This document shows, piece by piece, positions 797-58,938 of a DNA stretch of 64,000 bases; the first letter of the stretch is position 1; every line of letters begins with the position of its first letter. The notes below the pieces were generated by a model, which saw only the letters and a list, made by a program, of their open reading frames with translations, was not told the DNA's origin and searched no databases. The stretch lies in assembly GCA_038117265.1 (NCBI GenBank), contig JAYOFO010000004.1, forward strand, positions 18,816 to 82,815, written 5' to 3'. Origin of the DNA: Rhodospirillaceae bacterium. GTDB lineage: Bacteria; Pseudomonadota; Alphaproteobacteria; UBA6615. The position numbers were made by a program, and so were the translations under genes.

Positions 797-859
797 AGAA
801 ATGCGGTTCGTGACGGTGATGTAGGGGCATTGCCGGCGGGCCGTACGGAGGCCCAGCGC

Positions 860-4973: not shown

Positions 4974-5075
4974 CGCGCCTTCCACATTCGGCGTTAATAT
5001 CGACGGCGTCGCCCCATCGGGCGGCGCCGTTCGCATTCAAGCGTGCCGCAAAGGCACCGTTACGGGGGGAATTCC

Positions 5076-9698: not shown

Positions 9699-9700
9699 CG

Positions 9701-10705: not shown

Positions 10706-10718
10706 CGGTTCGCTCCGC

Positions 10719-12918: not shown

Positions 12919-13347
12919 TTGGGAGCCTCCCGTAGTCAATTGATTCGCTTTGCAAAACGACGTTGAGCCCAGCCGACGTTGATTTCGCCGATCACGTGCC
13001 CCTGTCGGGAGGAGAACAAAGCAGTTCTGGCCGACAAAAGCTAGCCGTTATCACGGAATTGTAGGGCTCAGCGGTCATGCGGTTCGGTCCGTCTCCCTGT
13101 TCCGAGTGCCCTCCAGATCGGGGACAGTTCGGCAGCTTCGAGAGTGGACGCGAATTGTGGCGATACCTTCACGCGGGTTTGATGTGTTGCGGGCGATTTC
13201 GTGCCGAAAAAATGACGAATCGCGCCCATCCCTCAGTTTACACACGTTTCCAGTCTGGTAACTTCGCATCGGCCCGAATGGGAACGGCAAACGATTCGCT
13301 AAGAACGAGGCCGGTGCGCCACACCGGACCGGGCAGGGAGAAACTGG

Positions 13348-13887
13348 ATGGTCGACAACCTTGTTAACACCGTCACGCGCGTATGCAGCACGATTGCTGC
13401 GTTCTGGGCGATGGCGCTGGCGTTCCTCATTCTCTGGGACATCTCGGGCCGGACGTTCTTCAACGCGCCGTTCGACGGGACGATCGAGATCGTTGCCAAT
13501 TCGATGGTCTCTATCCTGTTCCTGCAGCTGCCCTACACGATCTACCGCGGCGCGCATCTGCGCACGACGGTTATCTATCAGAACCTTGGCGACCTTCCGC
13601 GGCGCCTGATCGACATCTTCGTCGCACTGCTCGGAATCTGGTTCTTCTGGTCGGTCGCGGTAGGCGGCTGGGAAGACATGGTCATCGGCTGGGGCGTCGA
13701 CGAGCGCGAGGGCGAGGGCTCAATCCGCGTGCCGATCTATCCGGTCCGCACCCTGATCATCGTGTTCGCGCTGGTCTCGCTGATCGTCTATGTGGTTCTG
13801 CTCTGGCACCACATCTTCGGCACCTCGCCGATCACCGACGAGGAAGAGGGCAAGACCGAAGAGGCGATTTCCGGCGCGCAGATGTAG
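13348..13887 (+). CDS. dctQ: TRAP transporter small permease (DctQ)
   Basis: 179 aa, 4 predicted TM helices, directly upstream of dctM. RBS GGGAGAAAC. Confidence 0.7.
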   Translation: MVDNLVNTVTRVCSTIAAFWAMALAFLILWDISGRTFFNAPFDGTIEIVANSMVSILFLQLPYTIYRGAHLRTTVIYQNLGDLPRRLIDIFVALLGIWFFWSVAVGGWEDMVIGWGVDEREGEGSIRVPIYPVRTLIIVFALVSLIVYVVLLWHHIFGTSPITDEEEGKTEEAISGAQM

Positions 13888-13968
13888 CGCGCCTCCAGGG
13901 ACAAACAACAATCTTCAGTACCGGCCGCATCCGGCCAGGGAACCGAATGGGACGGGGGACGTAATCAA

Positions 13969-15312
13969 ATGGAACCGACTTCAGCCGTAATCCTGATGCT
14001 GATCGTGCTGATCATCGCTGTGGTGGTCGGCATTCACATCGGTCTTTCGCTGGGAATCACGGCGCTTGTCGGCACCTGGCTCATGTTCGGCTCGTACGAA
14101 CTCGCGGCGGGCCAGGTCGGCAGCACTTCCTTCTTTGCGCTGCGGAACTTCGTGTTCGCGGTGATCCCGCTCTTTGTGCTGATGGGCGAATTCGTCAGCA
14201 GATCGGGATCGGCTGGCGACCTCTACCGGGTCATGAACTTCGGCCTGAATCGCATTCCGGGGCGCCTCGCGGTGGCGACCGTGGCCGGTAACGCGGTATT
14301 CGCGGCCGTCACGGGCACCAGCCTCGCATCCGCCGCGGCGTTCTCGCGTCTGGCCTATCCGGAGATGATCAACGCCGGCTACAGCCGCAAGTACGCGCTC
14401 GGCTCGGTGGCCGGCAGCGCCTGCCTCGGGATGCTGATCCCGCCGTCGGTGCTGCTGATCATCTGGGGCATCGTCACCGAAATCTCGATCGGCTTCCTGT
14501 TCCTCGCCGGCATCTTACCCGGTATCCTGCTGGCCTTCTTCATGGCGTTCTACTGTTCGGGCGTTGCGGTCGTCAGCCCGAAGACGGCGCCGACGGTCGA
14601 TCTTTCGACGGAGAAACTCACAAGCCAGGAGGTCATCAGCGGCTGTGGCGTCATCTTCCTGATCCTCGCCGTACTCGGATCGATCTGGGCCGGGCTGGCC
14701 ACGCCGTCCGAGGCGGCGGCGCTCGGCGCCCTGTTCGGCCTGATCCTGGCGCTCATCAAGGGCGTGCGCTGGGATGGCATCCGCGAGGCGATCATCGATT
14801 CCGGCAAGGTCATCGCGCCGATCCTGTTCCTGCTGCTCACCGCGCAGATGTATGCGCGGCTGCTGACGACAGGCGGCATCGTCAATCTGATCACCGACAC
14901 GGTCGGCGGTGCGGGCATCGACCCGAACGTCGCCGTGCTGATCATGATCGTGATCTGGCTGGTGCTGGGCACGCTGCTGGATTCCGGCTCGATCATCCTG
15001 CTGACGGTGCCGATCTTCTGGCCGATCGCGCAGAACTTTGGCTACAACGAGTACGCCTTCGCGATCATGGGTATCCTGGCGATCGAGGCCGGGCTGCTGA
15101 CGCCGCCGGTCGGGTTGCTCGTCTATGCGGTCAAGGGCTCGGTGGCCGACAGCACGGTGCAGCTGGGAGAAATCTTCGCCGGCTCGGTGCCGTACTGGCT
15201 GCTGATCCTGGTCGTCATGCTGATCGTGTGGATTCTTCCCGACATCGCGACCATCCCGATCACCTGGAGCTCGGGGATCGAGTTCACTCACCAGATCGGG
15301 ATCAAGTTCTGA
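13969..15312 (+). CDS. dctM: TRAP transporter large permease (DctM)
   Basis: 447 aa polytopic membrane protein with DctM family blocks. Confidence 0.8.
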   Translation: MEPTSAVILMLIVLIIAVVVGIHIGLSLGITALVGTWLMFGSYELAAGQVGSTSFFALRNFVFAVIPLFVLMGEFVSRSGSAGDLYRVMNFGLNRIPGRLAVATVAGNAVFAAVTGTSLASAAAFSRLAYPEMINAGYSRKYALGSVAGSACLGMLIPPSVLLIIWGIVTEISIGFLFLAGILPGILLAFFMAFYCSGVAVVSPKTAPTVDLSTEKLTSQEVISGCGVIFLILAVLGSIWAGLATPSEAAALGALFGLILALIKGVRWDGIREAIIDSGKVIAPILFLLLTAQMYARLLTTGGIVNLITDTVGGAGIDPNVAVLIMIVIWLVLGTLLDSGSIILLTVPIFWPIAQNFGYNEYAFAIMGILAIEAGLLTPPVGLLVYAVKGSVADSTVQLGEIFAGSVPYWLLILVVMLIVWILPDIATIPITWSSGIEFTHQIGIKF

Positions 15313-15339: not shown

Positions 15340-15374
15340 AAAACGGCGGCGTCCGGTGCGGACGCCGCCGTTTT
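15340..15374. terminator. Bidirectional rho-independent terminator
   Basis: AAAACGGCGGCGTCC-ggtgc-GGACGCCGCCGTTTT. Confidence 0.65.
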
Positions 15375-15401: not shown

Positions 15402-15878
15402 TTAGCCGTTGCGCTCCGTGGCCACGCGCTCGATCGCGTCGACGATGGCCTGGTATCCGGTGCAGCGGCAGTAGTTGCCAGAGATGAATTCGCGGATTTC
15501 ATCGCGCGACGGTTTGGGGTTCTTCGCCAGGAGTTCCTCGGCCGTCAACAGCATGCCCGGCGTGCAGAAGCCGCACTGGACGGCGTTGCGCTCGTGGAAG
15601 GCCTGCTGCAGGTCGGCGATCTCGCCGCTGTCGGAACGGCCCTCGATCGTCTCCACCACGGCGCCGTCGGCCTGCGCGGCCAGGGTCAGGCAGCCGCGCA
15701 CGATCTGGCCGTCAACGCGGATCGTGCACGCCCCGCACACGCCGTGCTCGCAGCCGACATGGCTGCCGGTCAGCTCGAGTTCGTAGCGCACGAAGTCCAC
15801 CAGGCTGGTCCGGGCGGGAATCCGCCGGCTGACCTGCTGGCCGTTGACGGTGAGGGTGATGTCGACATTCTGGTCCAT
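15402..15878 (-). CDS. (2Fe-2S)-binding small subunit of a xanthine dehydrogenase/CODH family enzyme (CoxS-like), orphan
   Basis: 158 aa; CEHGVCGACT and CGFCTPG ... CRCTGY cluster motifs. Confidence 0.8.
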   Translation of the reverse strand: MDQNVDITLTVNGQQVSRRIPARTSLVDFVRYELELTGSHVGCEHGVCGACTIRVDGQIVRGCLTLAAQADGAVVETIEGRSDSGEIADLQQAFHERNAVQCGFCTPGMLLTAEELLAKNPKPSRDEIREFISGNYCRCTGYQAIVDAIERVATERNG

Positions 15879-15895
15879 CGTTCGTCTCCGTCGGC

Positions 15896-16750
15896 TCAGG
15901 CCGCGAACTGGGCGAGCGCGCGCTTCGTCAGCACGCGTGCCAGGTGCATCTTCATCTCGGCCGGACCATTGAGGTCGGCCATCGGGTCGAGGTCGTCGTC
16001 GAGCGCGTCCTGCGCGGCCTTGAGCGTCGCCTCCTTGTTGGCCCGGCCGTTGAGGGCCGCCGCGGCATTCTCGGCGAGCATCGGACGGTCGCCCGCGCCG
16101 AAGAAGGACAGGCGCATGTCGGCGAAGCTGTCGCCGTCCAGCCGGCCCTGCACCGCCAGGCCGACGATGGCATAGTCACCGTGCCGTCGCGCCAGCTCCA
16201 TGAACGCCGTCCGCTCGCCGTCTGCGATGGCGGGGATCTCGGCGCCGACGAGGACCTCGCCGGGTTCCAGCGCCGTCTCGAACAGCCCCAGGAAGAAGTC
16301 GTTGGCGTGCACCGTGCGGGTGCCGGTGTGGCTCTGCAGGACCAGGCTGGCGTTCAGGGCCCGGGCCACGGCGGGCAACTCGGCCGCCGGGTCCGCGAAT
16401 GCGATCGAGCCGCCGAAGGTTCCCCGGTTGCGGATCGCGTGGTGCGCAACATGCGGCATCGCGGCGCTGATCAGCGGAGCGAGTTCGCGCACCTCGGCCG
16501 ATTCCATGACCTGGTTGTGGCGCGCCAGCGCGCCGATGCGCAGCGTCGTGCCGTCGGTGGAGATGTGCGCGAGGTCCGAAAGGCCGGTGATGTCGATCAG
16601 CACGGTCGGCGCGGACAGGCGCATGTTGAGTGTCGCCATCAGGCTCTGTCCGCCGGCGAGAATGCGGGCGTCGTCGCCGTGCTGGTCGAGCAGCGCGAAG
16701 ACCTGTTCGAGGGTCTCGGCACGCACATAGGCGAATGGTGCGGGTTTCAA
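15896..16750 (-). CDS. FAD-binding subunit of a xanthine dehydrogenase/CODH family enzyme (CoxM-like), orphan
   Basis: About 284 aa from TTG (LKPAPFAYVRAETLEQ), preceded by AGGGAG. ILAGGQSL and GTFGGSIA FAD motifs. No Moco large subunit adjacent. Confidence 0.7.
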   Translation of the reverse strand: MKPAPFAYVRAETLEQVFALLDQHGDDARILAGGQSLMATLNMRLSAPTVLIDITGLSDLAHISTDGTTLRIGALARHNQVMESAEVRELAPLISAAMPHVAHHAIRNRGTFGGSIAFADPAAELPAVARALNASLVLQSHTGTRTVHANDFFLGLFETALEPGEVLVGAEIPAIADGERTAFMELARRHGDYAIVGLAVQGRLDGDSFADMRLSFFGAGDRPMLAENAAAALNGRANKEATLKAAQDALDDDLDPMADLNGPAEMKMHLARVLTKRALAQFAA

Positions 16751-16914
16751 CCGTTTTCTCCCTGGGTACGACCTGTATCCTTCGACGTCCGGACTTCGTA
16801 GTCGGCCCGGCACAGATGTTTTCTAGCCAACTCCCGCCGGTGCGTCTATCCGCCCCGGGAGCGAGCGCATATATCTTAGCGCCCCCGTTACCCGAATACA
16901 CTCAGGAGTTCCCC

Positions 16915-17385
16915 ATGGCCGTTGCGAACGCGAACGTGAAAGTGAATAAGGCCGTCTACAACCTCGTCGGCAAGACGGTGTCCCATGCGCGCACCGACGT
17001 TTCAGTGCGCGACGTGACGGTGGTGACGGACGAACCGCTCGAGCGCGGCGGCACCAACGTCGCGGCGTCGCCGACCGAAACGATGATCGCGGCGCTGGTC
17101 GGGTGCACGAACAACGTCGCGACCCGCATCGCACACCACAAGGGACTCGAATTCGAGATCGAGACCATCGAGGCGGAGGTCGAGTTCGACCGTCGCGGCG
17201 TCATCCTGGAAGAGGACATTGCCGTTCCGTTTCCCAGCATCAAGCTCACCATCAACGTCCGCGCGACCGCGACACCGGAGCAGCTTGCCGAGGTGGAGGG
17301 CCTGCTGCCGATCTATTGCCCGGTCTCGAAGGTGTTCCAGGCCGCCGGCACCGATGTTACAGAAACCTGGAATGTGATCGACTGA
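16915..17385 (+). CDS. OsmC/Ohr family peroxiredoxin-like protein
   Basis: 156 aa; OsmC fold (MIAALVGCTNNV, LPIYCPVS). AGGAG RBS. Confidence 0.65.
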   Translation: MAVANANVKVNKAVYNLVGKTVSHARTDVSVRDVTVVTDEPLERGGTNVAASPTETMIAALVGCTNNVATRIAHHKGLEFEIETIEAEVEFDRRGVILEEDIAVPFPSIKLTINVRATATPEQLAEVEGLLPIYCPVSKVFQAAGTDVTETWNVID

Positions 17386-17402: not shown

Positions 17403-18020
17403 ATGTCGCTGATCGTCTGGGGACGCCACACCTCATCCAACGTGCAGAAGGTCCTGTGGGGCTGTGTCGAAATGGGTGTCGACTTCGTCCGGCACGACAT
17501 GGCCGGCAAGTTCGGCTTCACTGACGACTATTTGACGATGAATCCGAACCGCTTCGTCCCCACGATCGACGATGACGGCTTCATCCTGTGGGAATCGAAC
17601 GCGTGCCTGCGCTATCTCGTGCGCAAGCACGGGCAGGGGACGCTGTGGCCGGAGGATCCGCAGGTGTGCGCCGATGCCGACCGCTGGATGGACTGGCAGA
17701 CGGCGACCTTCTGGCCGCATCTGCGGCCCGTGTTCCACGGGCTCATTCGCACGCCGCCCGAGAAGCGGAACATGGATGCGATCGACCAGGGAGTGAAGGC
17801 CGCCGGCGAGGCCAGCGCCGTCCTGGACGCCGCGCTCGCGGGCCGCAGATTCGTCGCCGGCGACGAATTCACCATGGGCGATATCCCGATCGGCGGCGTG
17901 ATCTATCGTTGGTATGCGATGGACATCGCGCGGCCGGACCGGCCGAACATTCGCGCCTGGTACGAGCGCCTGACCGAACGGCCGGGCTTCGCCGAACACA
18001 TCATGATCCCGCTGGAGTAG
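17403..18020 (+). CDS. Glutathione S-transferase
   Basis: 205 aa; GST N- and C-domains (SSNVQKVLW, FVPTIDDDGFILWESNA). Confidence 0.7.
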   Translation: MSLIVWGRHTSSNVQKVLWGCVEMGVDFVRHDMAGKFGFTDDYLTMNPNRFVPTIDDDGFILWESNACLRYLVRKHGQGTLWPEDPQVCADADRWMDWQTATFWPHLRPVFHGLIRTPPEKRNMDAIDQGVKAAGEASAVLDAALAGRRFVAGDEFTMGDIPIGGVIYRWYAMDIARPDRPNIRAWYERLTERPGFAEHIMIPLE

Positions 18021-18498
18021 CGGCGCGCGCGTTCAACTGCGCCTGGCGTTCGCGGATCGGCTCGGGCCAGCGAGACTTGATGTAGGCGAGCACGGCCCAG
18101 ATGTCGGCGTCGGGCAACACCCCGTCATAGACGGGCATGTCGGTGGGAACCGGCTGCCCGACGAGGGCTGCGACACCGTACTTGGTGATGTCGAACAGCG
18201 TCCGGTCGTCATGGTGCCAGGTGTGGCCCGACGCATCGTGGGGCGGTGCGGGCAGTTTCCCGTCGGGCTGGCGCTGACGCCAGTCCGGCTGGCCCTCGAG
18301 GTTCGCCCCGTGGCAACTGGCGCACTGGCCGGCATAGACGGTCGCGCCGCGGGCCACCAGGGCGGCATCGCCCGCATCCGCACCGGCCACGCCCCCCGGG
18401 TCTTTGCCCGATGCTGCCAGGTACACCACGGCCGCGATGGTTGCAGCCGCGATGGTGGCGGGTACGAGAAGTTGGCGCGGTTCGAATCGTGCGAGCAT
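18001..18498 (-). CDS. Membrane-anchored mono-heme c-type cytochrome
   Basis: 165 aa; N-terminal TM helix; CASCHG heme-binding motif. Confidence 0.7.
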   Translation of the reverse strand: MLARFEPRQLLVPATIAAATIAAVVYLAASGKDPGGVAGADAGDAALVARGATVYAGQCASCHGANLEGQPDWRQRQPDGKLPAPPHDASGHTWHHDDRTLFDITKYGVAALVGQPVPTDMPVYDGVLPDADIWAVLAYIKSRWPEPIRERQAQLNARAATPAGS

Positions 18499-18551
18499 GA
18501 AACGCTAGACATACTGGTTCCAGCCGCTGGAAGGTCAAGCGGTCAGGCTGC

Positions 18552-19697
18552 CTAGCTCCAAAGCTGCCGCGACGCCATCTCGGCACCCTCGGTTATCGAG
18601 CGGAACTTCATCCAGACGATGTTCCGGTCGACCTGGACGCGCCCGGCGAAGGTGCCGAATCCGCAATCGCCGCCGACCATCACGTTCTCGCGGCCGACGA
18701 CGCTGGCGTAGTTCAGGATACGGTCGCAGACCAGCTCGGGATGCTCGACGAAGTTCGACGTGGTGTCGATGACGCCCGGAATGATGAACTTGTCGTCGCG
18801 CAGCTTCACGTCGCGCCAGACCTTCCACTCGTGCTCGTGGCGGGGATTCGCGCCGGGGAAGGAGACGGCCTGCGGCTTCGCGTCGAGGATGATGTCGACG
18901 ATGTCGGCCAGCGGCACGTCCTCGTGGTGCGGCCCCATGGTGCTCGCCCAGCAGACATGCATGCGCATCCGGTCCGCCGGGATGTCGCGGACGGCGTGGT
19001 TGAGTGCGTCGACATGCATCGCGATCTCCTTGCGGAAATCCTCGAGGCTCAAGTGCCGGAAGATCGTGTGCCGGCTGAGCGCGAGGTCGGGACAGTCGAG
19101 CTGCAGGACGAGACCGGCGTTCACGATGGCCTCGTATTCGCGCTTCATCACGTCGGCCAGCGCGAAGATGTAGGCCTCTTCGCTGTCGTAATAGAGGTTC
19201 GGCAGGAACCGCGCGATCTGCCCGGGCGACGGCGAGGTCATGAAGACTTCTTCGACCCCGGGACGGCCGATCACGCTGGCGGCCCGGTCGATGTCCGCCT
19301 GTGCGGACTCGAAATCCTTCCAGTCCACCGGGCCCGAGCAGGCGGGGCGGTGGGTCAGGGGGGTGACGAAGGGCGCCAGGATCCGGGCCAGTTCCGGGAA
19401 TTCCTCTTCTTCGGTACCGACGGGCTTCGGCTGGTTCGGGCCGTCGTAGCCGGTCAGCCGGTCCTTGACGTGGATCGTGTAGTCGGCGCGCCCCTGCTCG
19501 CCATCGTTCACGATATCGAGCCCGACATCGATCTGTTTGGCCACGACCTCGTCGACCGCACGGGTGACCGCGGCATTCAGCTCTGACTTGCGCGCACCGG
19601 GGTTCTTCTCGTCGTCCAGCAGCAGATCGACGACGTCGTGCGGGCGCGGAAGGCTGCCCGTGTGTGTGGTCAGGATGCAGTCTGTGCTTCGTTTCAT
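18552..19697 (-). CDS. Cobalamin-independent methionine synthase (MetE C-terminal domain)-like family protein
   Basis: 381 aa from MKRSTDCILTTHTGSLPRP with GGGGGGAA RBS; UroD/MetE-like barrel motifs (GVIDTTSNFVEHPELV, GGDCGFG). Confidence 0.6.
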   Translation of the reverse strand: MKRSTDCILTTHTGSLPRPHDVVDLLLDDEKNPGARKSELNAAVTRAVDEVVAKQIDVGLDIVNDGEQGRADYTIHVKDRLTGYDGPNQPKPVGTEEEEFPELARILAPFVTPLTHRPACSGPVDWKDFESAQADIDRAASVIGRPGVEEVFMTSPSPGQIARFLPNLYYDSEEAYIFALADVMKREYEAIVNAGLVLQLDCPDLALSRHTIFRHLSLEDFRKEIAMHVDALNHAVRDIPADRMRMHVCWASTMGPHHEDVPLADIVDIILDAKPQAVSFPGANPRHEHEWKVWRDVKLRDDKFIIPGVIDTTSNFVEHPELVCDRILNYASVVGRENVMVGGDCGFGTFAGRVQVDRNIVWMKFRSITEGAEMASRQLWS

Positions 19698-19769
19698 CGT
19701 TCCCCCCAAATGGCGTGCACGCTTGCCGGGCCGGAACGGTAGCATAGTGGCGTGAGAAAAAAGGGCCTT

Positions 19770-20483: not shown

Positions 20484-20675
20484 CGCCTGCTCCCCTTCGG
20501 GCCGGGCCGTTGGTTTCGTCCGGCCTCCAATTTCCAAATTCTGCACCAGTTTCTACTTTTTTGGAAATTTGTTGACTCGACCCTGCACGAGCCGGTTCTA
20601 TCCTTGTCGTGAACTGCGCCGTCCAAGAAGCGCGGCGCGCCGACATTCGGGTTCAACCAGGGAGAAGACAGGATC

Positions 20676-21767: not shown

Positions 21768-21793
21768 CGCCCGGTCCGGGAAAGGCCCCGTAA

Positions 21794-22330: not shown

Positions 22331-22371
22331 CGGGCGGGCACGCGCACGAGGCAGAAGGGTAGTTCGCCGCC

Positions 22372-23706: not shown

Positions 23707-23731
23707 TCAGGTGCGGTCACCGCAAACGGAA

Positions 23732-23754
23732 GGGGCCGCCCGAAGGCGGCCCCG
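23732..23754. terminator. GC-rich hairpin between convergent dctM2 and dctP3; no clear U-run
   Basis: GGGGCCGCC-cgaa-GGCGGCCCC. Confidence 0.35.
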
Positions 23755-23781
23755 AAAGCATTGCTTTGCGATGTGGGGGTG

Positions 23782-25068: not shown

Positions 25069-25950
25069 ATGCAGATTTTCAAGGACCGTATCCCGTATTC
25101 GGCCATCGTCGACCGGCCGCCGTTCAAGCTGCCGGACGGCAAGCGGATGGCCGTGTGGATCATCGCCAACGTCGAGGAGTGGGACATCTCCCGGCCGATG
25201 CCGCGCACGGTCTTGCCGCCGCCCATGGGGGTGCCCCTGTTGCCCGACTTGCCGAACTGGTCGTGGCACGAATACGGCATGCGTGTCGGCTTCTGGCGCA
25301 TCCGCGATGCGCTGCGCGACCGCGGCATCCGGGCGACCATGGCGGTCAACGGCCGGGTCTGCGAGAACTATCCGCGTATCTGCGAGGCGGCACTGGAACT
25401 CGATTGGGAGTTCATGGGCCACGGCCACTTACAGGGCCCGATGCACAGGCACGACGACCAGCAGGAGCAGATCGACAATGCCTGCCGGGCGATCGAAAAA
25501 TTCTCGGGCAAGAAGGTGCGCGGCTGGGAGAGCCCGGGCCTGACCGAGACCTTCCAGACCATCGACTTTCTGCGGCGTGCGGGGATCGAGTACGTCGCCG
25601 ACTGGGTGCTCGATGACCAGCCGGTCGCGATCGAGACGACCGAGGGACCGATGTACTCGGTTCCCTACACGGTCGAGACCAACGACATCACCATGATGGC
25701 GCTGCAGCAGCACTCTTCGGACGAGATGTTCAGGCGTTCGAAGGACCAGTTCGACCGGCTCTATCAGGAGAGCGCGGATTCGGCGCGCATCATGTCGATC
25801 AGCCTGCACATGTACCTGACCGGCGCGCCGCACCGGATCAAGTATTTCGAGGACATTCTCGACTATATCCAGAGCCACACAGACGTGGCGATCGTGCCGG
25901 GAGAGGACATCCTCGACTGGTGGCTCGCCAGCGAGCAGGCACCGAAGTAG
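25069..25950 (+). CDS. Polysaccharide deacetylase family protein (PuuE/allantoinase-like)
   Basis: 293 aa; NodB-like fold hallmarks (DxxxxEEW, HGH, LHMYLTG). Confidence 0.6.
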   Translation: MQIFKDRIPYSAIVDRPPFKLPDGKRMAVWIIANVEEWDISRPMPRTVLPPPMGVPLLPDLPNWSWHEYGMRVGFWRIRDALRDRGIRATMAVNGRVCENYPRICEAALELDWEFMGHGHLQGPMHRHDDQQEQIDNACRAIEKFSGKKVRGWESPGLTETFQTIDFLRRAGIEYVADWVLDDQPVAIETTEGPMYSVPYTVETNDITMMALQQHSSDEMFRRSKDQFDRLYQESADSARIMSISLHMYLTGAPHRIKYFEDILDYIQSHTDVAIVPGEDILDWWLASEQAPK

Positions 25951-26893: not shown

Positions 26894-26909
26894 CGAAGGG
26901 AGAACTCTC

Positions 26910-49402: not shown

Positions 49403-51045
49403 CGCTCTATCTTTGCCCCGCTTCGCGCGAGTTCCTCCAGCGCGGCCGGCGAGTCCACGTCGAGCAGCACGCTGTCATCGTCCATGGGCACCTCGTGGAC
49501 GACATCGGCATTGTCGCCGATCAGATGCTTCGCGCCGACATCGCCGCTCAGGTGCGACATCTCGTCGAAGAACTGGCTGTCCCAGAGGACCGGGTTGCCG
49601 CGCTTGCCGTTCCAGGTGGGCACGCAGATCGCGCGCCCGGCATCGGGGTCGAACGCGGCCATCAGCTTGTGCAAATGTGCCGGGCCGACGCGCGGCATGT
49701 CGCCCAGCGCGATGAGCGCGCCCTCGCAGGTCTCGGGCAGGGCGGCGAGGCCCACGCGCAGCGACGTGCTCAGCCCGTCCTCATAGTCGGGATTGTGGAC
49801 CACGACCGCATCGCCGCCGACCGCGTCTGCGACACGCTCGGCCTCGTGGCCCGTGACCACGACGACCGGGGATGCGCCCGACTGTGCGACGGCATCGATG
49901 GCGCGCCGGATCATCGGCTTGCCGTCGACACGGATCAGCAGCTTGTTTTCGGCTCCCATGCGCCGGGATTGGCCCGCCGCGAGAATCACGGCCGCGAAAC
50001 GCGGCGCGCGCGGCGCGTCGACCCGGTCGCGCGGTGCGGCCTTCATGCGTGGCAGGGGGCGCGAGGGTATTTCCTTCAACAGGCCGCCGACGCCCATCCC
50101 CATGATGTGGGCGCTTTCGACCTCGATGCCGGCGAGCATGCGCTCGAGCAAGATGTCGTTGCCGCCGACACGCGGGGAACGCGCCGAGCCGGGCAGGGCG
50201 AGGACCGGAATGCCCCCGAGGTCGGCCAGCGCGGTGAGGTTGCCCGGGTCGACCGGCATGCCGAAGTGCCGGACGGTGCCCTTCGCTGCCTCGATGCCCG
50301 CGGGCACCACGTCGCGCCGGTCGGTGGTCGCCGAGGCGCCGACGACGAGGATGATTTCGGCGCCGGCGTCGCGCGCCGCGCCGAGCGCATGCGCGATGGC
50401 CTCCGGCGTGTGCGCAACGGTGTCGGAGCGTCCCAGGGTGCTGCCCAGGGCCTCGACGCGGGCCCGGATCACGCCCTCGGTCTTGGCGATCAGCCGCGGG
50501 GCGAGACCCGGCAACGTCGTCTGCACCAGCGCGAACCGGCGGTGCCGGTAGGGCAGGACCGAGACAAGTCCGCTGCCCACAACGCGCGCGGCGGCCTCGG
50601 CCTGTGCGAGTCGTGCCTCGCCGACCGCGAAGGGGATGATCTTCACCGTTGCGACGACCTGTCCGGCCTCCACCCGGTCGAGCGGGTGCAGGGTCGACAT
50701 GGTGATCCCTTCGTCGACGGCGTTCACGCGATCGATCGCGGCGGGATCGATGCGCACGATACCGTCATGGGCCGCGAACAGGTTGACCCGGCCGGTGCCG
50801 GCGATGCCGGTTCCCACGCCGTCGCCCGTCGCGGCCTCGGCCAGGCGGCGTGCGGCATCGTTCTCGCCGACATCGTCGGCCTCGATGATGGCCACGGTGA
50901 CCGTCTCGACCCCGTCGGCGATAAGCTGGCCGACGTCATCGTCGGAAAGGATCCGCCCCTTCCGGTACTTGCGGCCCCCCAGCGTCTGGCCGTGCACCAG
51001 AAGTGCGCCAGCGGCCTCGCTCACCGGTACGGGTCCGAACCTCAT
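49399..51045 (-). CDS. Molybdopterin-binding domain / MocA-like molybdenum cofactor cytidylyltransferase fusion protein
   Basis: 548 aa from MRFGPVPVSE; N-terminal MoCF-biosynthesis domain, C-terminal NTP-transferase (AAVILAAGQSRRMGAENKLL). The track ORF 49399..52023 is a read-through frame. Confidence 0.65.
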   Translation of the reverse strand: MRFGPVPVSEAAGALLVHGQTLGGRKYRKGRILSDDDVGQLIADGVETVTVAIIEADDVGENDAARRLAEAATGDGVGTGIAGTGRVNLFAAHDGIVRIDPAAIDRVNAVDEGITMSTLHPLDRVEAGQVVATVKIIPFAVGEARLAQAEAAARVVGSGLVSVLPYRHRRFALVQTTLPGLAPRLIAKTEGVIRARVEALGSTLGRSDTVAHTPEAIAHALGAARDAGAEIILVVGASATTDRRDVVPAGIEAAKGTVRHFGMPVDPGNLTALADLGGIPVLALPGSARSPRVGGNDILLERMLAGIEVESAHIMGMGVGGLLKEIPSRPLPRMKAAPRDRVDAPRAPRFAAVILAAGQSRRMGAENKLLIRVDGKPMIRRAIDAVAQSGASPVVVVTGHEAERVADAVGGDAVVVHNPDYEDGLSTSLRVGLAALPETCEGALIALGDMPRVGPAHLHKLMAAFDPDAGRAICVPTWNGKRGNPVLWDSQFFDEMSHLSGDVGAKHLIGDNADVVHEVPMDDDSVLLDVDSPAALEELARSGAKIER

Positions 51046-51734
51046 TCGCCGTGCAGGACCTGCGTGATCTGCGCCATGATCGAGATGGCAATTTCTGCAG
51101 GGCTCTTTGCGTTGATGGCGAGGCCGACAGGCGAGTGGATGCGCGCGATCTCTTCGTCCGTGTAGCAGGCCTCCATGAGGCGCTCGACACGGCCGGCATG
51201 GGTGCGCCGGCTGCCCAGCGATCCGATGTAGAAGGCATCGGACCGCAGTGCGACGTGGAGCGCGGGGTCGTCCAGCTTGGGGTCGTGGGTCAGGGTGACG
51301 ACCGCGGTTCGCGCATCGATGCCCAGCGTGCTCAGCGCATCGTCGGGCCAGTCCTCGCTCAGGGTGACATCGGGAAACCGGTCGCGGGTGGCGAAGGCGC
51401 CGCGGGGGTCGACGATCACGACCTCGTATCCCGACGTCTGTGCTAGCAGGACGAGCGGCTGGGCGATGTGGACGGCGCCGACGACGATCAGTCGTTTCGG
51501 CGGGTTGAACACCTGCACGAACAGCGAGGCGTCGGTGTCGTGTACGCGCCCCGACTTGTCGTCGCGGATCGCGGCACGGGCCGCATCCAGCGTGGCGTCG
51601 TCGAGCGCCAGCGCGCCTTCGGCCCGGTCGGTGTAGACGAGGGCCTGTTCGCCGGATTCCAGGTTCGAGACCAGCGCCACCGGCTGCTTGGCTTCGCGTG
51701 CGGCGAGCAGGGCTTGGAGGGTTTCGGGGCGCAT
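51042..51734 (-). CDS. XdhC/CoxI family protein, Rossmann-like C-terminal domain
   Basis: 230 aa; LIVVGAVHIAQ Rossmann motif. Stop overlaps the downstream start (ATGA). Confidence 0.65.
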   Translation of the reverse strand: MRPETLQALLAAREAKQPVALVSNLESGEQALVYTDRAEGALALDDATLDAARAAIRDDKSGRVHDTDASLFVQVFNPPKRLIVVGAVHIAQPLVLLAQTSGYEVVIVDPRGAFATRDRFPDVTLSEDWPDDALSTLGIDARTAVVTLTHDPKLDDPALHVALRSDAFYIGSLGSRRTHAGRVERLMEACYTDEEIARIHSPVGLAINAKSPAEIAISIMAQITQVLHGE

Positions 51735-51740
51735 GTCGGG

Positions 51741-52088
51741 TCAGTCGATCCGCTCGACCCAGACCTCGACCTTGCCACCGCAGGCGAGGCCGACTTCCCA
51801 GGCCATTTCGTCGGACACGCCGAAGTCGAGCAGGCGCGGCTTGCCGTCCTTCATCACCTCGCGGGCCTCGTGGACGACGGCACCCTCGATGCAGCCGCCC
51901 GAGACCGAGCCGATCATGTTGCCGTCCTCGTCGATGGCGAGCTGGCTGCCGACGGGACGGGGCGAGGAGCCCCAGGTGCTGACGACCGTCGCCAGGGCGA
52001 CGTTGCGACCGCCTTGCCGCCATGCGGCGGCCTGTTCGACGATGTCGTCATGGTCGAGGGTCTGCAGGTTGATCGATGCTTCGCTCAT
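51741..52088 (-). CDS. XdhC/CoxI family N-terminal domain protein
   Basis: 115 aa from MSEASINLQ (GGAGG RBS); SVSGGCIEGAV motif. Confidence 0.6.
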   Translation of the reverse strand: MSEASINLQTLDHDDIVEQAAAWRQGGRNVALATVVSTWGSSPRPVGSQLAIDEDGNMIGSVSGGCIEGAVVHEAREVMKDGKPRLLDFGVSDEMAWEVGLACGGKVEVWVERID

Positions 52089-53392
52089 TCGGCTGCCTCC
52101 TGCCACTTGCGCGCCACCTTGGCCCGTTCCGGGGCCGGTTTCGACAGCGACGCGGCCAACTGTTCCAGGCTTTCCAGGTTGTGGATCGAACGGAACTCGT
52201 CGACGTGCGGCAGGATCGACCGAGCGCCGAGCGACTTCGGTTCGTAACGATCATAACGTAGGAGCGGGTTCAGCCAGATCAAGCGGCGGCATGACATGTG
52301 CAAGCGCTCGATCTCGCCCTCCAGCCCGTCCGCGGCGTCGCGGTCGAGGCCGTCGGTGATCATCAGGACCACCGCACCCTGGCCGAGCACGCGACGCGAC
52401 CATTGCGTGTTGAAGTCGTGCAGCGAATGGCCGATCCGGGTGCCGCCCGACCAGTCGTCGACCGCTTCGACCACCTTGTCCAGCGCCTCGTCGACATCCT
52501 TGTAGCGCAGCTGGCGGGTGACGTTGGTCAGCTGCGTGCCGAACAGGAAGGTGTGGACCCGGTCGCGGTCGTTCGTGACGGCGTGCATGAAGTGCAGCAT
52601 CATGCGCGAATAGCGGCTCATCGAGCCCGAGATGTCGCACAGCACGACCAGGGGCGGGGGGCGCCGCTTGCGCTTGCGGTACTGCAGCGGGATCGAGGCG
52701 CCGCCGCCGCGCATCGCCGCGCGCAGGGTGGCCCGCATGTCGATCCGCCGGCCGCGCTTGTCGCGGCGGAACCGGCGGGTCGGCATCTCGTCGATAGGCA
52801 GGCGCATGCGCGCGATAGCTCGCTTAGCCGCCTCGACCTCCTCGCGCGACATCTTCTCGAAGTCGGTCTTCTGCAAAACCTCGTTGGCCGACCAGGTCAT
52901 CACCGCATCGACGGTGATCTCGGGGTCTTCCTCGTCCTCGCCGTCGCCCTGGCCCGGCATCTCCGAGCGGTCCTGCTGCAGCGCCTCGGCCAGCCGGCGG
53001 TTCATTTCCTCGGCCTGCTGCTGGGCGTCGGGGTCGACGAAGGAGGGCAGGACCAGAGAGGCCATTCGCTCGAGCAGCTTGGGATTCCGCCAGAAGACGT
53101 GGAACGCCTGGTCGAAGATTTCACGCTGGTCGCGCCGGTTCACGAACACGGCGTGGAGCGTCCAGTAGAAATCGTCGCGGTTGCCGATGCCCACCGTCTC
53201 GACGGCGTTGATGGCCTCGATCACCCGTCCTGGCCCCACCGGCAGGCCCGCAGCGCGCAGCACGCGCGCGAAATGCATGATGTTCGTGGCGATCCGGCCC
53301 TCGTCGCCCGCGCGGGCCTCGGGAATCTCGTCGAGCGCCGTCCTGGCCCGGATCGCCGGGCGGGCCTCGTCGGGGATCGCCTTCTCGGACAC
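52085..53392 (-). CDS. coxE: VWA domain protein (CoxE-like)
   Basis: 435 aa; C-terminal VWA with a MIDAS motif (VVLCDISGSMS context). GTG start 9 nt after the moxR stop. Confidence 0.6.
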   Translation of the reverse strand: MSEKAIPDEARPAIRARTALDEIPEARAGDEGRIATNIMHFARVLRAAGLPVGPGRVIEAINAVETVGIGNRDDFYWTLHAVFVNRRDQREIFDQAFHVFWRNPKLLERMASLVLPSFVDPDAQQQAEEMNRRLAEALQQDRSEMPGQGDGEDEEDPEITVDAVMTWSANEVLQKTDFEKMSREEVEAAKRAIARMRLPIDEMPTRRFRRDKRGRRIDMRATLRAAMRGGGASIPLQYRKRKRRPPPLVVLCDISGSMSRYSRMMLHFMHAVTNDRDRVHTFLFGTQLTNVTRQLRYKDVDEALDKVVEAVDDWSGGTRIGHSLHDFNTQWSRRVLGQGAVVLMITDGLDRDAADGLEGEIERLHMSCRRLIWLNPLLRYDRYEPKSLGARSILPHVDEFRSIHNLESLEQLAASLSKPAPERAKVARKWQEAAE

Positions 53393-53401
53393 CGCGGCGT
53401 C

Positions 53402-54328
53402 CTAGCTCGTCGCCGTCTGCGCCAACGCGACCTCGCTCTTGACCTGATCGAGGATGCGTGCGGCCTCGCTGCCGCGGATCTTGGCGATGTCGTCCTGGTA
53501 CTTGAGCAGCACGCCCAGCGTGTCGTCGATCGCCTCGGGCGTGAGTTCGATTATGTCGAGCTGGTGCAGCGCCGAGGCCCAGTCGATCGTCTCGGCGATG
53601 CCCGGCAGCTTGAACAGGTCCATCTCGCGCAGCTTCTGGACGAATTCGACGACCTGGCACGACAGCCTCGCGCCGGCCTGGGGCGCCTTGATCGCCAGGA
53701 TTTCCAGCTCGCGCACGGCATCGGGATAGTCGACCCAGTAATAGAAGCAGCGGCGCTTCAGCGCGTCGTGAATCTCGCGCGTGCGGTTCGAGGTGATGAC
53801 GACGATCGGCGGCTTGTCGGCGCGGATCGTGCCGATCTCGGGGATCGTGATCTGGAAGTCCGACAGCACCTCCAGCAGGTAGGCCTCGAACGCCTCGTCG
53901 GTGCGGTCGAGCTCGTCGATCAGCAGCACGGGCGGGCCGTCGGCGGACGGGTCGAGCGCCTGCAGCAGGGGGCGGTGGATCAGGAACCGGTTGGAGAAGA
54001 TGTCGTCGCCCAGGCGCTCGCGGTCGGCGACGCCCTCGGCCTCGGCCATGCGGATCTCGATCATCTGGGCCGAATAGTTCCACTCGTACACGGCGGACGC
54101 CACATCGAGGCCCTCGTAACACTGCAGGCGCACCAGCCGGCGGCCCAGCGTGTCGGCCAGCACCTTGGCGATCTCGGTCTTCCCGACACCGGCCTCGCCC
54201 TCGAGGAAGAGGGGGCGTCCGAGCTGCAGCGACAGGTAGACCGCCGTCGCCAGGCTGCGGTCGGAGACGTAGTTGCCGTCGGCAAGCAGCTCCAGGGTGC
54301 TTTCGACGTTCTCAGGAAGACTGGTCAA
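53402..54328 (-). CDS. coxD: MoxR-like AAA+ ATPase (CoxD-like)
   Basis: 308 aa; Walker A GEAGVGKT, Walker B LLIDELDR. TTG start. Confidence 0.7.
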   Translation of the reverse strand: MTSLPENVESTLELLADGNYVSDRSLATAVYLSLQLGRPLFLEGEAGVGKTEIAKVLADTLGRRLVRLQCYEGLDVASAVYEWNYSAQMIEIRMAEAEGVADRERLGDDIFSNRFLIHRPLLQALDPSADGPPVLLIDELDRTDEAFEAYLLEVLSDFQITIPEIGTIRADKPPIVVITSNRTREIHDALKRRCFYYWVDYPDAVRELEILAIKAPQAGARLSCQVVEFVQKLREMDLFKLPGIAETIDWASALHQLDIIELTPEAIDDTLGVLLKYQDDIAKIRGSEAARILDQVKSEVALAQTATS

Positions 54329-54504
54329 GGGAATTTCTCACCCGCGTTGCGGCGCGAACGAACGGTTCGCCCATGAATTGAAGGTATTCCGATGTTCGGG
54401 GTCTGACGTTGATATAGCTCAGGGACCGCATTCGTCCAACCCGACCAAGCAAGACGGCCGGGGCGGGGCCCCGGCCGTCGCGCCAGTATATACGGCGATT
54501 GGGA

Positions 54505-55302
54505 TCAGCCGGCAGCGGCAACCGCGCGGCTCGCCATCACCGAGATGAGGTGCGCGCGATAGTCTGCGGAGGCATGGATGTCGGCGTTGAGACCGTCGGC
54601 CGACATCTTCACGCCCTTGGCGGCATCGGCGCTCCAGTTGCCCGACAGCGCGCTCTCGATCTCGGCGGCGCGGAACACGCCGTCCTGGCCGGCGCCGGTC
54701 ACCGCGACGCGGATCTCGCCACCGGTCTGCGCGACCATCACGCCCACCAGCGCATAGCGCGAGGCGGGGTTCGGGAACTTGGTGTAGGCCGCCTTGCCGG
54801 GGACGGGGAAGCGGACCGCGGTGATCAGCTCACCTTCCTCGAGCGTGGTGGTGAACATGCCGTCGAAATAATCGTCGGCGGCGATCTCGCGCTTGTTCGT
54901 GATCACCGTAGCGTTCAGGCCGAGCACTGCGGCCGGATAGTCGGCGGCCGGGTCGTTGTTGGCCAGCGAACCGCCGATGGTGCCGCGGTTGCGCACCTGG
55001 GGATCGCCGATATGGCTGGCGAGGCTGGCGAGCGCCGGGATCTTGCTCTGGACCACAGGCGAATTCGCCACGTCGACGTGGCGGGTCATCGCCTTGATGG
55101 TGACGCTGTCGCCGCCATCCTCGATGCCGACCAGGTCGCCGATGCCGGCGAGGTCGACGAGGTCCGAAGGCTGCGCGAGGCGCTGCTTCAGCGTCGGAAT
55201 CAGGGTCATGCCGCCGGCCAGGAACCGGCCGTCCTCGGACGAAGTCACGGCTTTGGCTGCAGCGTCGGCCGAACCCGCCTTCTGATAGTTGAACTGGTAC
55301 AT
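54505..55302 (-). CDS. coxM: CODH/xanthine dehydrogenase family FAD-binding medium subunit (CoxM-like)
   Basis: 265 aa; [18 protein letters not shown] motifs. RBS GGGAGG. Confidence 0.8.
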
Positions 55303-55324
55303 CGTCTACCTCCCTCGCCAGACG

Positions 55325-57703
55325 TTACTCCGCCGCCTGGCGGATCGTGGAACCGTTGATCGCCTGCCAAACCTTCTGCGGCGTGGCCGGCATTGAAATG
55401 TCTTCGACGCCGAGCGGCGCCAGTGCGTCGAGGATCGCGTTGATCACCGCTGGCGGCGAGCCGATGGCACCGACCTCGCCGACGCCCTTGACCTCGAGCG
55501 GGTTGGACGCGCCCATCACGCTCTTGGTCGAGGCCGCATAGCTCGGCACGTCGTCGGCCCGCGGCATGGTGTAGTCCATGTACGAGCCGGACAGGAGCTG
55601 TCCGTCGCTGTCGTAGACGCAGCCCTCGAGCAGCGCCTGGCCAATGCCCTGGGTCAGGCCGCCATGGACCTGTCCCTCGACGATCATCGGGTTGATGACG
55701 CGCCCGACATCGTCGACCGCCGTCATGCCCACGATCTCGACATCGCCCGTCTCGGGGTCGACCTCGACCTCGCAGATGTGACAGCCGCCGGGGAAGCTGA
55801 AGTTGAGCGGGTCGTAGAACGCGTTCTCGTCGAGCCCGGGCTCGATCTCCTCGATCGGGTAGTTGTGGGGCACATAGGCCGCCAGCGAGACCTCGCCGAA
55901 CGCCATCTCCTTGTCGGTGCCCGCGACGGTGAACTTGCCGTCTGCGAACTCGATGTCTGAGACGTCGGCCTCGAGGATGTGCGCCGCGATCTTCTTGGCC
56001 TTGTCGATGACCTTGTTACAGGCCTTGAGGATCGCCGGCCCCCCCACCGCGAGCGAACGCGAGCCGTAGGTGCCCATGCCGAACTGGACCTGGTCGGTGT
56101 CGCCGTGGCTGATCTCGACGTTCTCGATCGGGATGCCGAACGTGTCGGAGACGAGCTGGGCGAAAGTGGTCTCGTGGCCCTGGCCGTGGCTGTGGGTGCC
56201 CGTGTAGACGGTCACCGAGCCGGTCGGGTGCACGCGCACCTGCGCGGACTCATAGAGTCCTGCGCGGGCGCCCAGCGCCCCGGCGACGGCCGACGGCGCG
56301 ATGCCGCACGCCTCGATATAGGTAGAAATGCCGATGCCGCGCAGCTTGCCGACTTTCTCCGCCGCGGCACGTCGCTTCTCGAAGCCGGCATAGTCGGCGG
56401 CCTCGAGTGCGGCATCGAACGAGGCGGGATAGTCGCCGCAGTCGTACTGCAGCGCCACCGGCGTCTGGTAGGGGAACTGGTCCGGCTGGATCATGTTCCG
56501 CTTGCGCAGCTCGACGGGGTCGATGCCCGTCTCGCGCGCCGCCTTGGCGACGAGGCGTTCGAGCAGGTAGGTGCATTCGGGGCGCCCGGCGCCGCGATAG
56601 GCGTCGACAGGCACGGTGTTGGTGAACACCGTCTGCACCTCGGCATAGATCGCGGGCGTCTGGTACACGCCGGCGAGCAGGGTCGCGTAGAGGTAAGTCG
56701 GCACGCTCGACCCGAACGTCGAGAGATAGGCGCCGATGTTAGCCTTGGTCGCGACACGCAGGCCGATGAACTTGCCGTCGGCGTCGAGCGCGAGCTCGGC
56801 GTGGCTCTCATGGTCGCGGCCGTGGGCGTCGGTCATGAAGGATTCCGAACGCTCCGCCGTCCACTTGATCGGGCGGTTCACCTTGGCCGCGGCCCAGGTG
56901 AGGATCGCCTCCTCGGCGTAGTGGAAGATCTTCGAGCCGAAGCCGCCGCCGACATCGGGCGCGACGACGCGCAGCTTGTGCTCGGGAATCTGCAGCACGA
57001 ACGCGCCCATCAGCAGCCGGATGACGTGCGGGTTCTGGCTGGTGGTGTAGAGCGTGTGGCGGCCCGACGTGCGGTCGTAGTCCGAGATCGCCGCGCGCGG
57101 CTCCATCGCGTTGGGGATCAGGCGGTTGTTGACCAGGTCGATCGAGACGATTGTCGCGGCGTTCGCGAAGGCGGCGTCGGTGGCCTCCTTGTCGCCGATC
57201 TCCCAGTCGAAGCAGCGATTGTTGGGGACGTCGTCATGGACGAGGGTCCCGCCTGCCAGCGCCGCGTCCATGTCGATGACGGCGGGCAGCACATCGTAGT
57301 CGACGGCGATCAGTTCGGCGGCGTCGCGCGCCTGGCCGCGGGTCTCGGCGATGACGATGGCGACCTGGTCGCCGACGTGACGCACCTTGTCGACGGCCAG
57401 CGGCGGGTGGCCCGGCTCGAGCATCGGCGAGCCGTCCTTGTTGTGGATCTGCCAGCCGCAGGGCAGGCCGCCAACCCCGTCAGCGGCCATGTCGGCGCCG
57501 GTCAGCACGGCCAGCACGCCGTCGGCGGCGCGCGCCTTCGAGGTGTCGACCTTCGCCAGCTTCGCGTGCGCGTGCGGCGACCGCAGAATCCAGGCGTGGG
57601 CCTGGCCCGGCCGGTTGATGTCGTCGGTGTAGTTGCCGTTCCCCGTCAGGAACCGCCGGTCCTCAACGCGCCTGACGGGAGCTCCGATACCGGTGGCCGT
57701 CAT
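55325..57703 (-). CDS. coxL: Molybdopterin-binding large subunit, form II CODH-like (AYRGAGR active-site loop)
   Basis: 792 aa; [11 protein letters not shown] (form II, not the form I AYxCSFR). RBS GAAGGGATAA. Confidence 0.8.
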
Positions 57704-57707
57704 GACG

Positions 57708-58175
57708 TTATCCCTTCAGGGCTTGTGCGCCGGCCAGGATGGACTTGACGATATTGTGGTAGCCGGTGCAGCGGCAGAGGTTGCCCTCGAGCCACTCGCG
57801 AACATCTTTCTCGCTCGGATCGGAGTTCTTCTTCACCAGATCGAGCGCGCTCATTACCATGCCCGGAGTGCAGAAGCCGCACTGCAGGCCGTGGTTCTCG
57901 CGGAAGGCCTCCTGCATCGGGTGCAGGGTGTCGCCGTCGGCCAGGCCCTCGATCGAGGTGACGTCGGCTCCTTCGTTCTGCATCGCCAACGTCGTGCACG
58001 ACTTCACGGACTCGCCGTTCACATGCACCACGCACGCGCCGCACTGGCTGGTGTCGCAGCCGACATGGGTACCGGTCAGCCCCAGATGTTCGCGAAGATA
58101 CTGAACGAGCAAGGTCCTCGGCTCGACATCAGCCGAGACGGACTTTCCGTTCACCGTCATGGACACGGTGGGCAT
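57708..58175 (-). CDS. coxS: (2Fe-2S)-binding small subunit (CoxS-like)
   Basis: 155 aa; CDTSQCGAC and CGFCTPG...CRCTGY. RBS GGGAGGAG. Confidence 0.85.
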
Positions 58176-58332
58176 TACGCTCCTCCCTGCTTCGGGTTGC
58201 CCCGTTAAATGCGGCCCGGTGCGCCGGAATTCGGGCGCACCGAACCTGTTGATTACAGAACCCGAGTTTCATCCGCCCCGCGCCTTGCGTCAAGGCGCTG
58301 CGCGGCGAAAACCTCCGTTTGCGACGAAATTC

Positions 58333-58938
58333 CTAGGACACGAGCGCCGCGATGACGACGATGGCGACGATCGCGCCGACGATCCAGGTGCCGACGCCGA
58401 CCTGGGCCAGGGCGCGGGTGTCGCCGGCCGTCGGAGCGGGTGCGGCGGCCGGCGCGGCGGGTGCCGGTTCGCCGGTCGGGGCCTCGGCCGCGCCGCCATC
58501 CTGTTCGACGGCCGCGGCGAAGTTCTCGAAGAACTGCGAGGCCATCTTCTTGGCTGTGCCGTCGATCAGGCGTGCGCCGAGCTGGGCGAGCTTGCCGCCG
58601 ACCTGGGCATCGACCTCGTACTTCAGGATGGTCGCGCCGCCATCGTCTTCGAGGCGGACATTGGCGCCGCCCTTGGCAAACCCAGCCGCGCCGCCCTTGC
58701 CCTCGCCGGAGATGCGGTAGCCGTTGGGTGCATCGATGTCGGTCAGTTGGACAGCGCCCGCGAACTTCGCCTTCACCGGGCCGACCTTGGCCGTGACCTT
58801 CGCCTCGAACGAGGTGTCGGAGGTCTGCTCGATCTCGTCGCATCCGGGGATCGACTGCTTGAGGACGTCGGGATCGTTGAGTGCGGCCCACACCTTCTCG
58901 CGCGGGGCTTCGATCCTGTATTCGCCGGTCATTTCCAT
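58333..58938 (-). CDS. coxG: CoxG-like SRPBCC family protein with a C-terminal membrane anchor
   Basis: 201 aa; SRPBCC fold N-terminal region, Ala/Pro linker, C-terminal TM helix. Confidence 0.6.
   Translation of the reverse strand: MEMTGEYRIEAPREKVWAALNDPDVLKQSIPGCDEIEQTSDTSFEAKVTAKVGPVKAKFAGAVQLTDIDAPNGYRISGEGKGGAAGFAKGGANVRLEDDGGATILKYEVDAQVGGKLAQLGARLIDGTAKKMASQFFENFAAAVEQDGGAAEAPTGEPAPAAPAAAPAPTAGDTRALAQVGVGTWIVGAIVAIVVIAALVS

Follow-up and report, generated by a model that had tools for sequence, protein, structure and literature searches.

FAD and [2Fe-2S] subunit genes of a molybdenum hydroxylase kept without an adjacent molybdenum subunit gene in a clade of marine Alphaproteobacteria

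Background

Molybdenum hydroxylases of the xanthine dehydrogenase (XDH) family are treated as fixed units of a large molybdopterin subunit (L), a medium subunit binding flavin adenine dinucleotide (FAD) (M) and a small subunit with two [2Fe-2S] clusters (S), and annotation counts 'cox' and 'xdh' genes accordingly. The system described here is an M-S gene pair without an adjacent L gene, identified in a stretch of 64,000 nucleotides (the window) of contig JAYOFO010000004.1 from a Rhodospirillaceae bacterium (assembly GCA_038117265.1, positions 18,816 to 82,815). The closest described systems are two. Ketone dehydrogenase (Kdh), the 6-hydroxypseudooxynicotine dehydrogenase of Paenarthrobacter nicotinovorans pAO1, is encoded in the nic cluster with the gene order kdhL - pnh - kdhMS, as given in a figure legend (PMC10494377), and the enzyme was reconstituted from separately cloned kdhL and kdhMS (PMC8305194). 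In the Kdh structure the C-terminal domain of S is embraced by L, and in solved structures both S clusters are buried by L and M (PMC8305194). The other is quinoline 2-oxidoreductase (Qor) of Pseudomonas putida 86, encoded by QorMSL in the order M-S-L.

The pair shares with Kdh the subunit sizes, the motifs AGGQS and T-x-GG, and the adjacency of M and S with L as a separate gene, although the sequence similarity is distant. In pAO1, kdhL is one gene away in the same cluster, whereas no unpaired L was identified within -15/+47 kb of the pair. The order of QorMSL is the ancestral order of the pair, but Qor keeps L within the operon and nothing points to quinoline as a substrate of the pair. Nearer in sequence are uncharacterised (puuE-like)-M-S-L operons with a convergent cupin gene, found in marine and soil Alpha- and Gammaproteobacteria (L020-L062, L091 and L093-L174). 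Their M (~56% identical) and S (~70%) are orthologous to those of the pair and their partners are the same as in the window (PuuE-like, cupin, HisD-like, cyclase and short-chain dehydrogenase/reductase (SDR) genes); they keep L directly after S, whereas the clade of the window lacks it. Finally, the window itself contains a form-II-like cox cluster (51042..58938) of the same protein families and cofactor set, which differs in its order S-L-M and its accessory genes coxG/D/E/xdhC and is not the source of the pair. In the literature searched for orphan coxM/coxS genes or for a large subunit encoded apart, Kdh was the only relevant case.

Results

The M-S pair and its family

M is covered end to end by the domains of an XDH/CODH-family FAD subunit: FAD_binding_5 (PF00941, 4.6e-46, 157 bits for a cut-off of 27) and CO_deh_flav_C (PF03450, 6e-23, 81 bits for a cut-off of 25.5). 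The glycine motifs AGG(Q/H)S and T-x-GG described for KdhM (PMC8305194) are present in its translation as LAGGQSL and RGTFGGS. S starts 17 nt past the stop of M, has its own GGAGA, and comprises Fer2 (PF00111, 1.5e-07) and Fer2_2 (PF01799, 1.8e-30). Its eight cluster ligands are all cysteines (GCEHGVCGAC...RGC and CGFCTPG / CRCTGY), in the arrangement of a [2Fe-2S] subunit: C-x4-C-x2-C...C in the N-domain and C-x2-C...C-x-C in the C-domain. Domains and ligands thus bear out the sequence-only reading of this DNA, made without database searches, that a complete M and a two-cluster S form a two-gene unit. The same gene calls (284 and 158 aa) were obtained on independent metagenome contigs.

Neither protein reaches an NCBIfam equivalog cut-off, the best models being glyceraldehyde dehydrogenase beta and gamma (251 vs 350 and 185 vs 290 bits). 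The nearest characterised relatives are of the Kdh/Qor type: KdhM for M (PDB 7DQX, 4e-54), QorS for S (PDB 1T3Q, 2e-49) and, for the L of the sister operons, QorL of the same quinoline 2-oxidoreductase structure (3e-131). With the cox-cluster proteins of the window the pair shares only 35% (M) and 49% (S) identity, so that the label 'CoxM/CoxS-like' given to it in the sequence-only reading is misleading. That the nearest relatives are M-S-L operons with a Qor-like L, and that M is nearest to KdhM, points to the pair as a remnant of an operon of the N-heterocycle hydroxylase type and not a copy of cox genes. An N-heterocyclic substrate may be suggested by the PuuE-like and cyclase-family hydrolases encoded alongside. 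The pair is also distinct from form I carbon monoxide (CO) dehydrogenase, where a coxMSL operon accompanied by coxDEF encodes an L that has VAYRCSFR and reaches the TIGR02416 cut-off: no L belongs to the pair, and the sister L scores 455-462 bits for a TIGR02416 cut-off of 991.

Clade-wide absence of L

The window contains a single L, that of the cox cluster, as identified by tblastn with three queries (cox L, sister L and the orphan L P0232). With the same queries no hidden or split L was found in the window or in the orphan loci apart from the cox L, and no remnant of L was detectable at the orphan loci. An unrecognised L near the pair, which would have overturned the original observation, is thus not present. 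Nor does the locus encode an (LMS)2 holoenzyme with L beside M and S, the only L within -15/+47 kb being the cox L, which has its own M and S.

A protein search recovered 284-aa M orthologs in more than 120 clusters, at 69-100% identity; where named, they belong to marine Alphaproteobacteria or to metagenome-assembled genomes (MAGs) of Rhodospirillaceae. Thirteen distinct orphan loci were collected from the neighbourhoods of three long contigs and from a scan of species-representative genomes. Their M are 68-94% identical to one another and 70-81% to that of the window, and their S are 82-97% identical. L is absent from all 13, within up to 10 kb on each side of M. The loci come from independent assemblies, some of them of megabase scale, which excludes an artefact of assembly.

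The orphan loci form a single clade in a neighbour-joining tree of M+S, whereas every adjacent clade is M-S-L, with L beginning ~500 bp past the end of M. The nearest relatives of the orphan clade are ~56% identical in M and ~70% in S. In many of these sister loci L is directly followed by a convergent cupin gene, and in six orphan loci (L007, L008, L010, L012, L013 and L014) the orthologous cupin gene (50-63% identical) is found ~70 bp after S. This shows a clean excision of L from between S and the cupin gene, with M and S retained. Later, the cupin gene was also lost from the window and from several other members, leaving S convergent with dctM, the gene of a transporter of the TRAP (tripartite ATP-independent periplasmic) type. 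In every long orphan locus an orthologous dctM comes next after S or after the cupin gene, and in the window it now sits where L, and later the cupin gene, lay. The gap between S and dctM is 89 bp, which leaves no room for an L gene, as had been noted from the sequence alone.

Selection and conservation

The pair is under strong purifying selection and is not decaying. The reading frames are intact in all 13 orphan loci (M of 284 aa, S of 158-161 aa), and the median pairwise ratio of nonsynonymous to synonymous substitution (dN/dS) is 0.10 for M and 0.065 for S, with a saturated dS (>1). The sequence-only reading had named decay, with frameshifts in orthologs, as grounds for abandoning its proposal; full-length genes throughout and ratios of ~0.1 and 0.065 are the opposite result.

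Relative to M, S is under tighter constraint than where L is linked: the divergence ratio is 0.52 in the orphan clade vs 0.84 in the L-linked relatives. The columns conserved at >=95% in 54 L-linked relatives are kept almost entirely, 55/56 in S and 56/62 in M; the departures are mostly conservative and occur at rates like those of L-linked control clades. Within the orphan clade, the half of S that L embraces in Kdh, its C-terminal domain, has a mean identity of 90.3% and is no less conserved than in L-linked relatives; its divergence relative to the N-domain is 0.77, vs 0.96-1.06 in two L-linked clades. This pattern of conservation indirectly suggests that S may still sit against a partner. 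Eight near-fixed differences separate S from that of the sister clade.

A conserved region upstream of M

Alignment of 200 bp upstream of M across the 13 orphan loci identified a promoter-like region. The hexamers TAGAC(G/T) and TAGAAA are nearly invariant in 11 of the 13, with a 17-nt spacer that is fixed in length and variable in sequence. The hexamers and a block of ~38 nt were found at the same position in L006, L009-L015, L017 and L018, and are lacking in L007 and L008. A sigma-70 consensus scan reported no promoter upstream of M, because the -10 hexamer has no T at position 6.

The putative ~38-nt leader/operator block (AGAAAACAnnTGTkCCGGnnCGAC.ACGAAGTCCGGAC) contains an inverted repeat CCGGx/xCCGG and a 6-pair hairpin with weak covariation. 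It is present once in the window, where 0 copies are expected by chance, and once per orphan locus, always upstream of M; it was not found in the sister loci. Taken together, the conserved upstream region looks like a dedicated promoter plus an operator or leader. A riboswitch or other known RNA upstream of M was rejected, as no Rfam family matches this region (E<=10) or the whole window. A regulon was likewise rejected, the -35-side motif being no commoner elsewhere in the window than by chance. The start codon of M in the orphan clade is TTG or GTG in 13/13 (window, L006-L018) and ATG in the sisters L020-L029.

Retained pathway context

The pair lies in a catabolic island (window positions ~800-28,500), and several of its genes have orthologs or homologs that accompany M-S-L elsewhere. 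The ortholog of the PuuE-like gene is directly upstream of M in the sister loci L020, L023, L025, L027, L028, L030, L047 and L060, and <=10 kb from L in seven metagenome loci. In the distant M-S-L loci L065, L067 and L068, L is followed by homologs of the cyclase and SDR genes, the cyclase gene coming directly after it, and in L022 and L026 HisD-like homologs follow L. As these genes and the cupin gene accompany the full operon, the pathway context of the enzyme was kept and the gene of its catalytic molybdenum subunit was not.

Split encoding in related loci

The mirror arrangement, a cupin-L unit without M or S in the upstream sequence (10 kb in L089, ~3 kb in L092), was identified in a related lineage at L089:9420-12382 and L092:2574-5536. 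Its cupin gene and L are separated by 3 bp or overlap by 4 bp, L has 793 aa and is 75% identical to the sister L, and the unit adjoins a TRAP dctQM homologous to the one beside S in the window. Two metagenome loci (L146 and L165) have L without M-S in the upstream sequence, of at least 4 kb. Conversely, the M-S-only arrangement arose independently at least four more times (L054, L080, L084 and L086). Three of these loci (L080:7813-12638, L084:8430-12679 and L086:8359-15900) come from Acidobacteriota and Thermoanaerobaculia MAGs, with an M 47-49% identical, an AMP-dependent (CoA) ligase upstream, an amidase or AllG/FdrA-like gene downstream and no L within 10 kb. These L-only and M-S-only loci, with the separate kdhL and kdhMS, show that split encoding is tolerated in this enzyme family.

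Discussion

Interpretation of the pair

The explanation that we find best, and to which we give an even chance, is that M and S form the FAD/[2Fe-2S] half of a molybdenum hydroxylase of the Kdh/Qor type, whose molybdenum subunit is supplied in trans. The ancestor would have been a (puuE-like)-M-S-L operon with a convergent cupin gene, encoding a hydroxylase of that type, from which L was excised at the base of one marine alphaproteobacterial clade while M and S were kept. M and S would keep their canonical role and assemble with a molybdopterin subunit from a gene outside the 64-kb window. Electrons would pass from that subunit through the two [2Fe-2S] clusters of S to the FAD of M and on to an external acceptor, and the enzyme so formed would serve the surrounding island, with its two TRAP systems, GntR/FCD regulator, and PuuE-like, cyclase-family, SDR and HisD-like proteins.

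Several observations weigh against a subunit supplied in trans. No cognate L was identified on the known contigs of the orphan clade among the 120 matches listed per query (sister L and P0232), and the chromosome OZ244931.1 (3,906,275 bp), which belongs to this clade, was not among the contigs of the listed matches. The matches listed reached down to ~70-72% identity, and calibration on L-linked loci indicates that a cognate L is expected to be only ~70-78% identical; since this is at the edge of what was listed, the negative is only weak to moderate evidence. In a metagenome scan with the L alignment, none of the matches listed came from samples holding this organism, and most were from soil. 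The sole L of the window is already provided with an M and an S. Finally, cluster binding and contact with some other partner would also account for the conservation of S. Among the loci considered as sources of an L in trans, P0213, P0215 and P0227 were rejected as ordinary M-S-L loci. P0232 and P0230 are true L-only loci and were rejected as outgroup members, their HisD-like protein being 73% identical vs 86-94% within the clade.

It is possible, at a clearly lower probability, that M and S now work without L as a soluble FAD/[2Fe-2S] oxidoreductase, alone or with a partner that is not of the XDH family and is encoded within the island or elsewhere; that the pair was kept after loss of the molybdenum subunit as a flavo-iron-sulfur module, alone or docked on such a partner, we regard as doubtful. 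The clean deletion of L, which was not moved together with its flanks, fits such a module, as do the lack of a cognate L on orphan-clade contigs among the matches listed, the promoter-like region and leader gained by the orphan clade and absent from the sister loci, the TTG or GTG start of M against ATG in the sisters L020-L029, and the near-fixed differences in S. The M-S genes of other lineages between a CoA ligase and an amidase or AllG gene, with no L within 10 kb, fit it too. To our knowledge, though, an XDH-family M-S pair that functions without L is not among the characterised systems, and none turned up in literature searches. The proximal cluster of S would be exposed in such a module, and the domain of S that faces L shows no relaxation. 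There is also no constant neighbour: OsmC, glutathione S-transferase (GST), MetE-like, cytochrome c, GFO/IDH and cupin genes come and go between loci, so that none is a constant candidate partner.

An unlikely alternative takes the pair as a second M/S set for the neighbouring form-II-like cox L, forming an isoenzyme with a different electron outlet. The count of genes in the window (two M, two S and one L) speaks for this, but the cox cluster already contains a complete M and a complete S, to which the pair is only 35% and 49% identical, the pair is separately transcribed 38.6 kb away, and the L of the operons from which it descends shares only 34% identity with the cox L. Least probable is that the pair represents a broken M-S-L operon, either as a relic without function or as an artefact of assembly. 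The missing L is compatible with this, as is the loss in the window of the cupin gene that marked the old operon end; the same arrangement in 13 independent assemblies, the intact frames and the conservation of ribosome-binding site, promoter-like hexamers and terminator speak against it, and the selection analysis (dN/dS of 0.03-0.10 at saturated dS) contradicts it. The sequence-only reading had offered the first two of these explanations, an L encoded elsewhere and a stand-alone electron-transfer module, and both stay as candidates.

Significance

As proteins, M and S fall within known families and are unremarkable; the unusual part is a conserved and selected arrangement without L that arose by clean deletion. 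New here are the clade-wide extent of this arrangement, the clean excision of L, the lack of decay, the conserved promoter-like region and the retained partner genes. Of the whole enzyme, only the electron-transfer half persists in this abundant marine clade, where it has been kept for a long time (dS is saturated) and under strong selection, with its own promoter-like region and inside the catabolic island usual for the full enzyme. If the subunits assemble from separately encoded and regulated genes, inference from gene neighbourhood under-counts and mis-pairs these enzymes. The alternative outcome is that M-S has a function of its own; an L-free module would be the first functional example of an XDH-family M/S working without a molybdenum subunit. 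In either case, such 'CoxM/CoxS' annotations in marine metagenomes are not evidence of CO oxidation.

Genomic context of the pair

The features of the window are collected in Table 1. The terminator between S and dctM has an 11-bp GC-rich stem (15370-15360 / 15354-15344) and a 5-nt loop flanked by AAAA and TTTT, and one of its arms was also picked up by a consensus scan. It is symmetric, the stop codon of S and that of dctM each being exactly 31 nt away. A terminator after S had been proposed from the sequence alone and is present, but at this distance and not at 25 nt. On the other side, the OsmC-like gene is divergent from M, as also stated in that reading, across an intergenic region of 164 bp. 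This gene is not a conserved neighbour, being absent from L007, L008, L018 and L019.

Table 1. Coordinates of the M-S pair, its control elements and the other features identified in the window
Feature	Coordinates	Strand	Evidence or remark
M, FAD-binding medium subunit, 284 aa	15896..16750	(-)	PF00941 and PF03450 matches; TTG start at 16750, stop 15896
S, small subunit with two [2Fe-2S] clusters, 158 aa	15402..15878	(-)	PF01799 and PF00111; ATG at 15878, stop 15402
Ribosome-binding site of M, AGGGAGA	16757..16763	(-)	(A)GGGAGA kept in 11 aligned orphan loci
Putative promoter of M-S	16820..16848	(-)	-35 TAGACG 16848-16843, 17-nt spacer, -10 TAGAAA 16825-16820
Putative leader/operator block, conserved	16787..16824	(-)	Alignment of orphan loci
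Bidirectional intrinsic terminator of S and convergent dctM	15340..15374	.	Stem-loop with A and T runs
TRAP transporter dctM, convergent with S	13969..15312	(+)	PF06808 3.3e-68
OsmC-like gene, divergent from M	16915..17385	(+)	PF02566
ACAD_2-type flavoprotein	830-2074		Island
SDR	3023-3922	(-)	Pfam/NCBIfam
Three tandem cyclase-family (PF04199) paralogs	3957-4973, 5043-6041, 6106-7089	(+)	Pfam/NCBIfam
HisD-like dehydrogenase	7203-8516	(+)	Pfam/NCBIfam
Acetoin-dehydrogenase-like E1/E2 genes	within 8577-11687		Island
Two TRAP systems flanking the pair	11827-15312 and 20676-24861		Island
GntR/FCD regulator	19770-20546		Island
PuuE-like hydrolase (polysaccharide-deacetylase family)	25069..25950	(+)	TIGR03212 1.1e-35 (below cut-off), PF01522
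GhrA-like dehydrogenase	25964-26893		Island
MhpD/DmpH-like hydratase	26706-27704		Island
xdhC-like	51734..51042	(-)	After coxE
coxE	53392..52085	(-)	cox cluster
coxD	54328..53402	(-)	cox cluster
cox M	55302..54505	(-)	cox cluster
cox L	57703..55325	(-)	PF01315, PF02738, PF20256; AYRGAGR motif
cox S	58175..57708	(-)	cox cluster
coxG	58938..58333	(-)	cox cluster

The cox cluster begins ~38.6 kb from the pair and is a full coxGSLMDE cluster, in agreement with the ~40 kb given in the sequence-only reading. Its L has the form II loop AYRGAGR and scores 667 bits, below the curated CO-dehydrogenase cut-off of 991 bits, and CO oxidation is therefore not to be assumed for this cluster either. Downstream of the cluster is a long open reading frame (ORF) (49399-52023, (-)) with MobA-like and MoCF domains in its C-terminal part.

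Other features of the window are the following. The three cyclase-family paralogs are 55-60% identical to one another and are followed by the HisD-like dehydrogenase. A MetE-like (PF01717) gene and then a gene for a 165-aa cytochrome c (18001-19745, (-)) are kept in most, not all, of the orphan loci. A third TRAP-type transporter (60277-63498, (-)) comprises a 712-aa DctM-type ORF beside an NMT1_3 (TAXI-type) binding protein.

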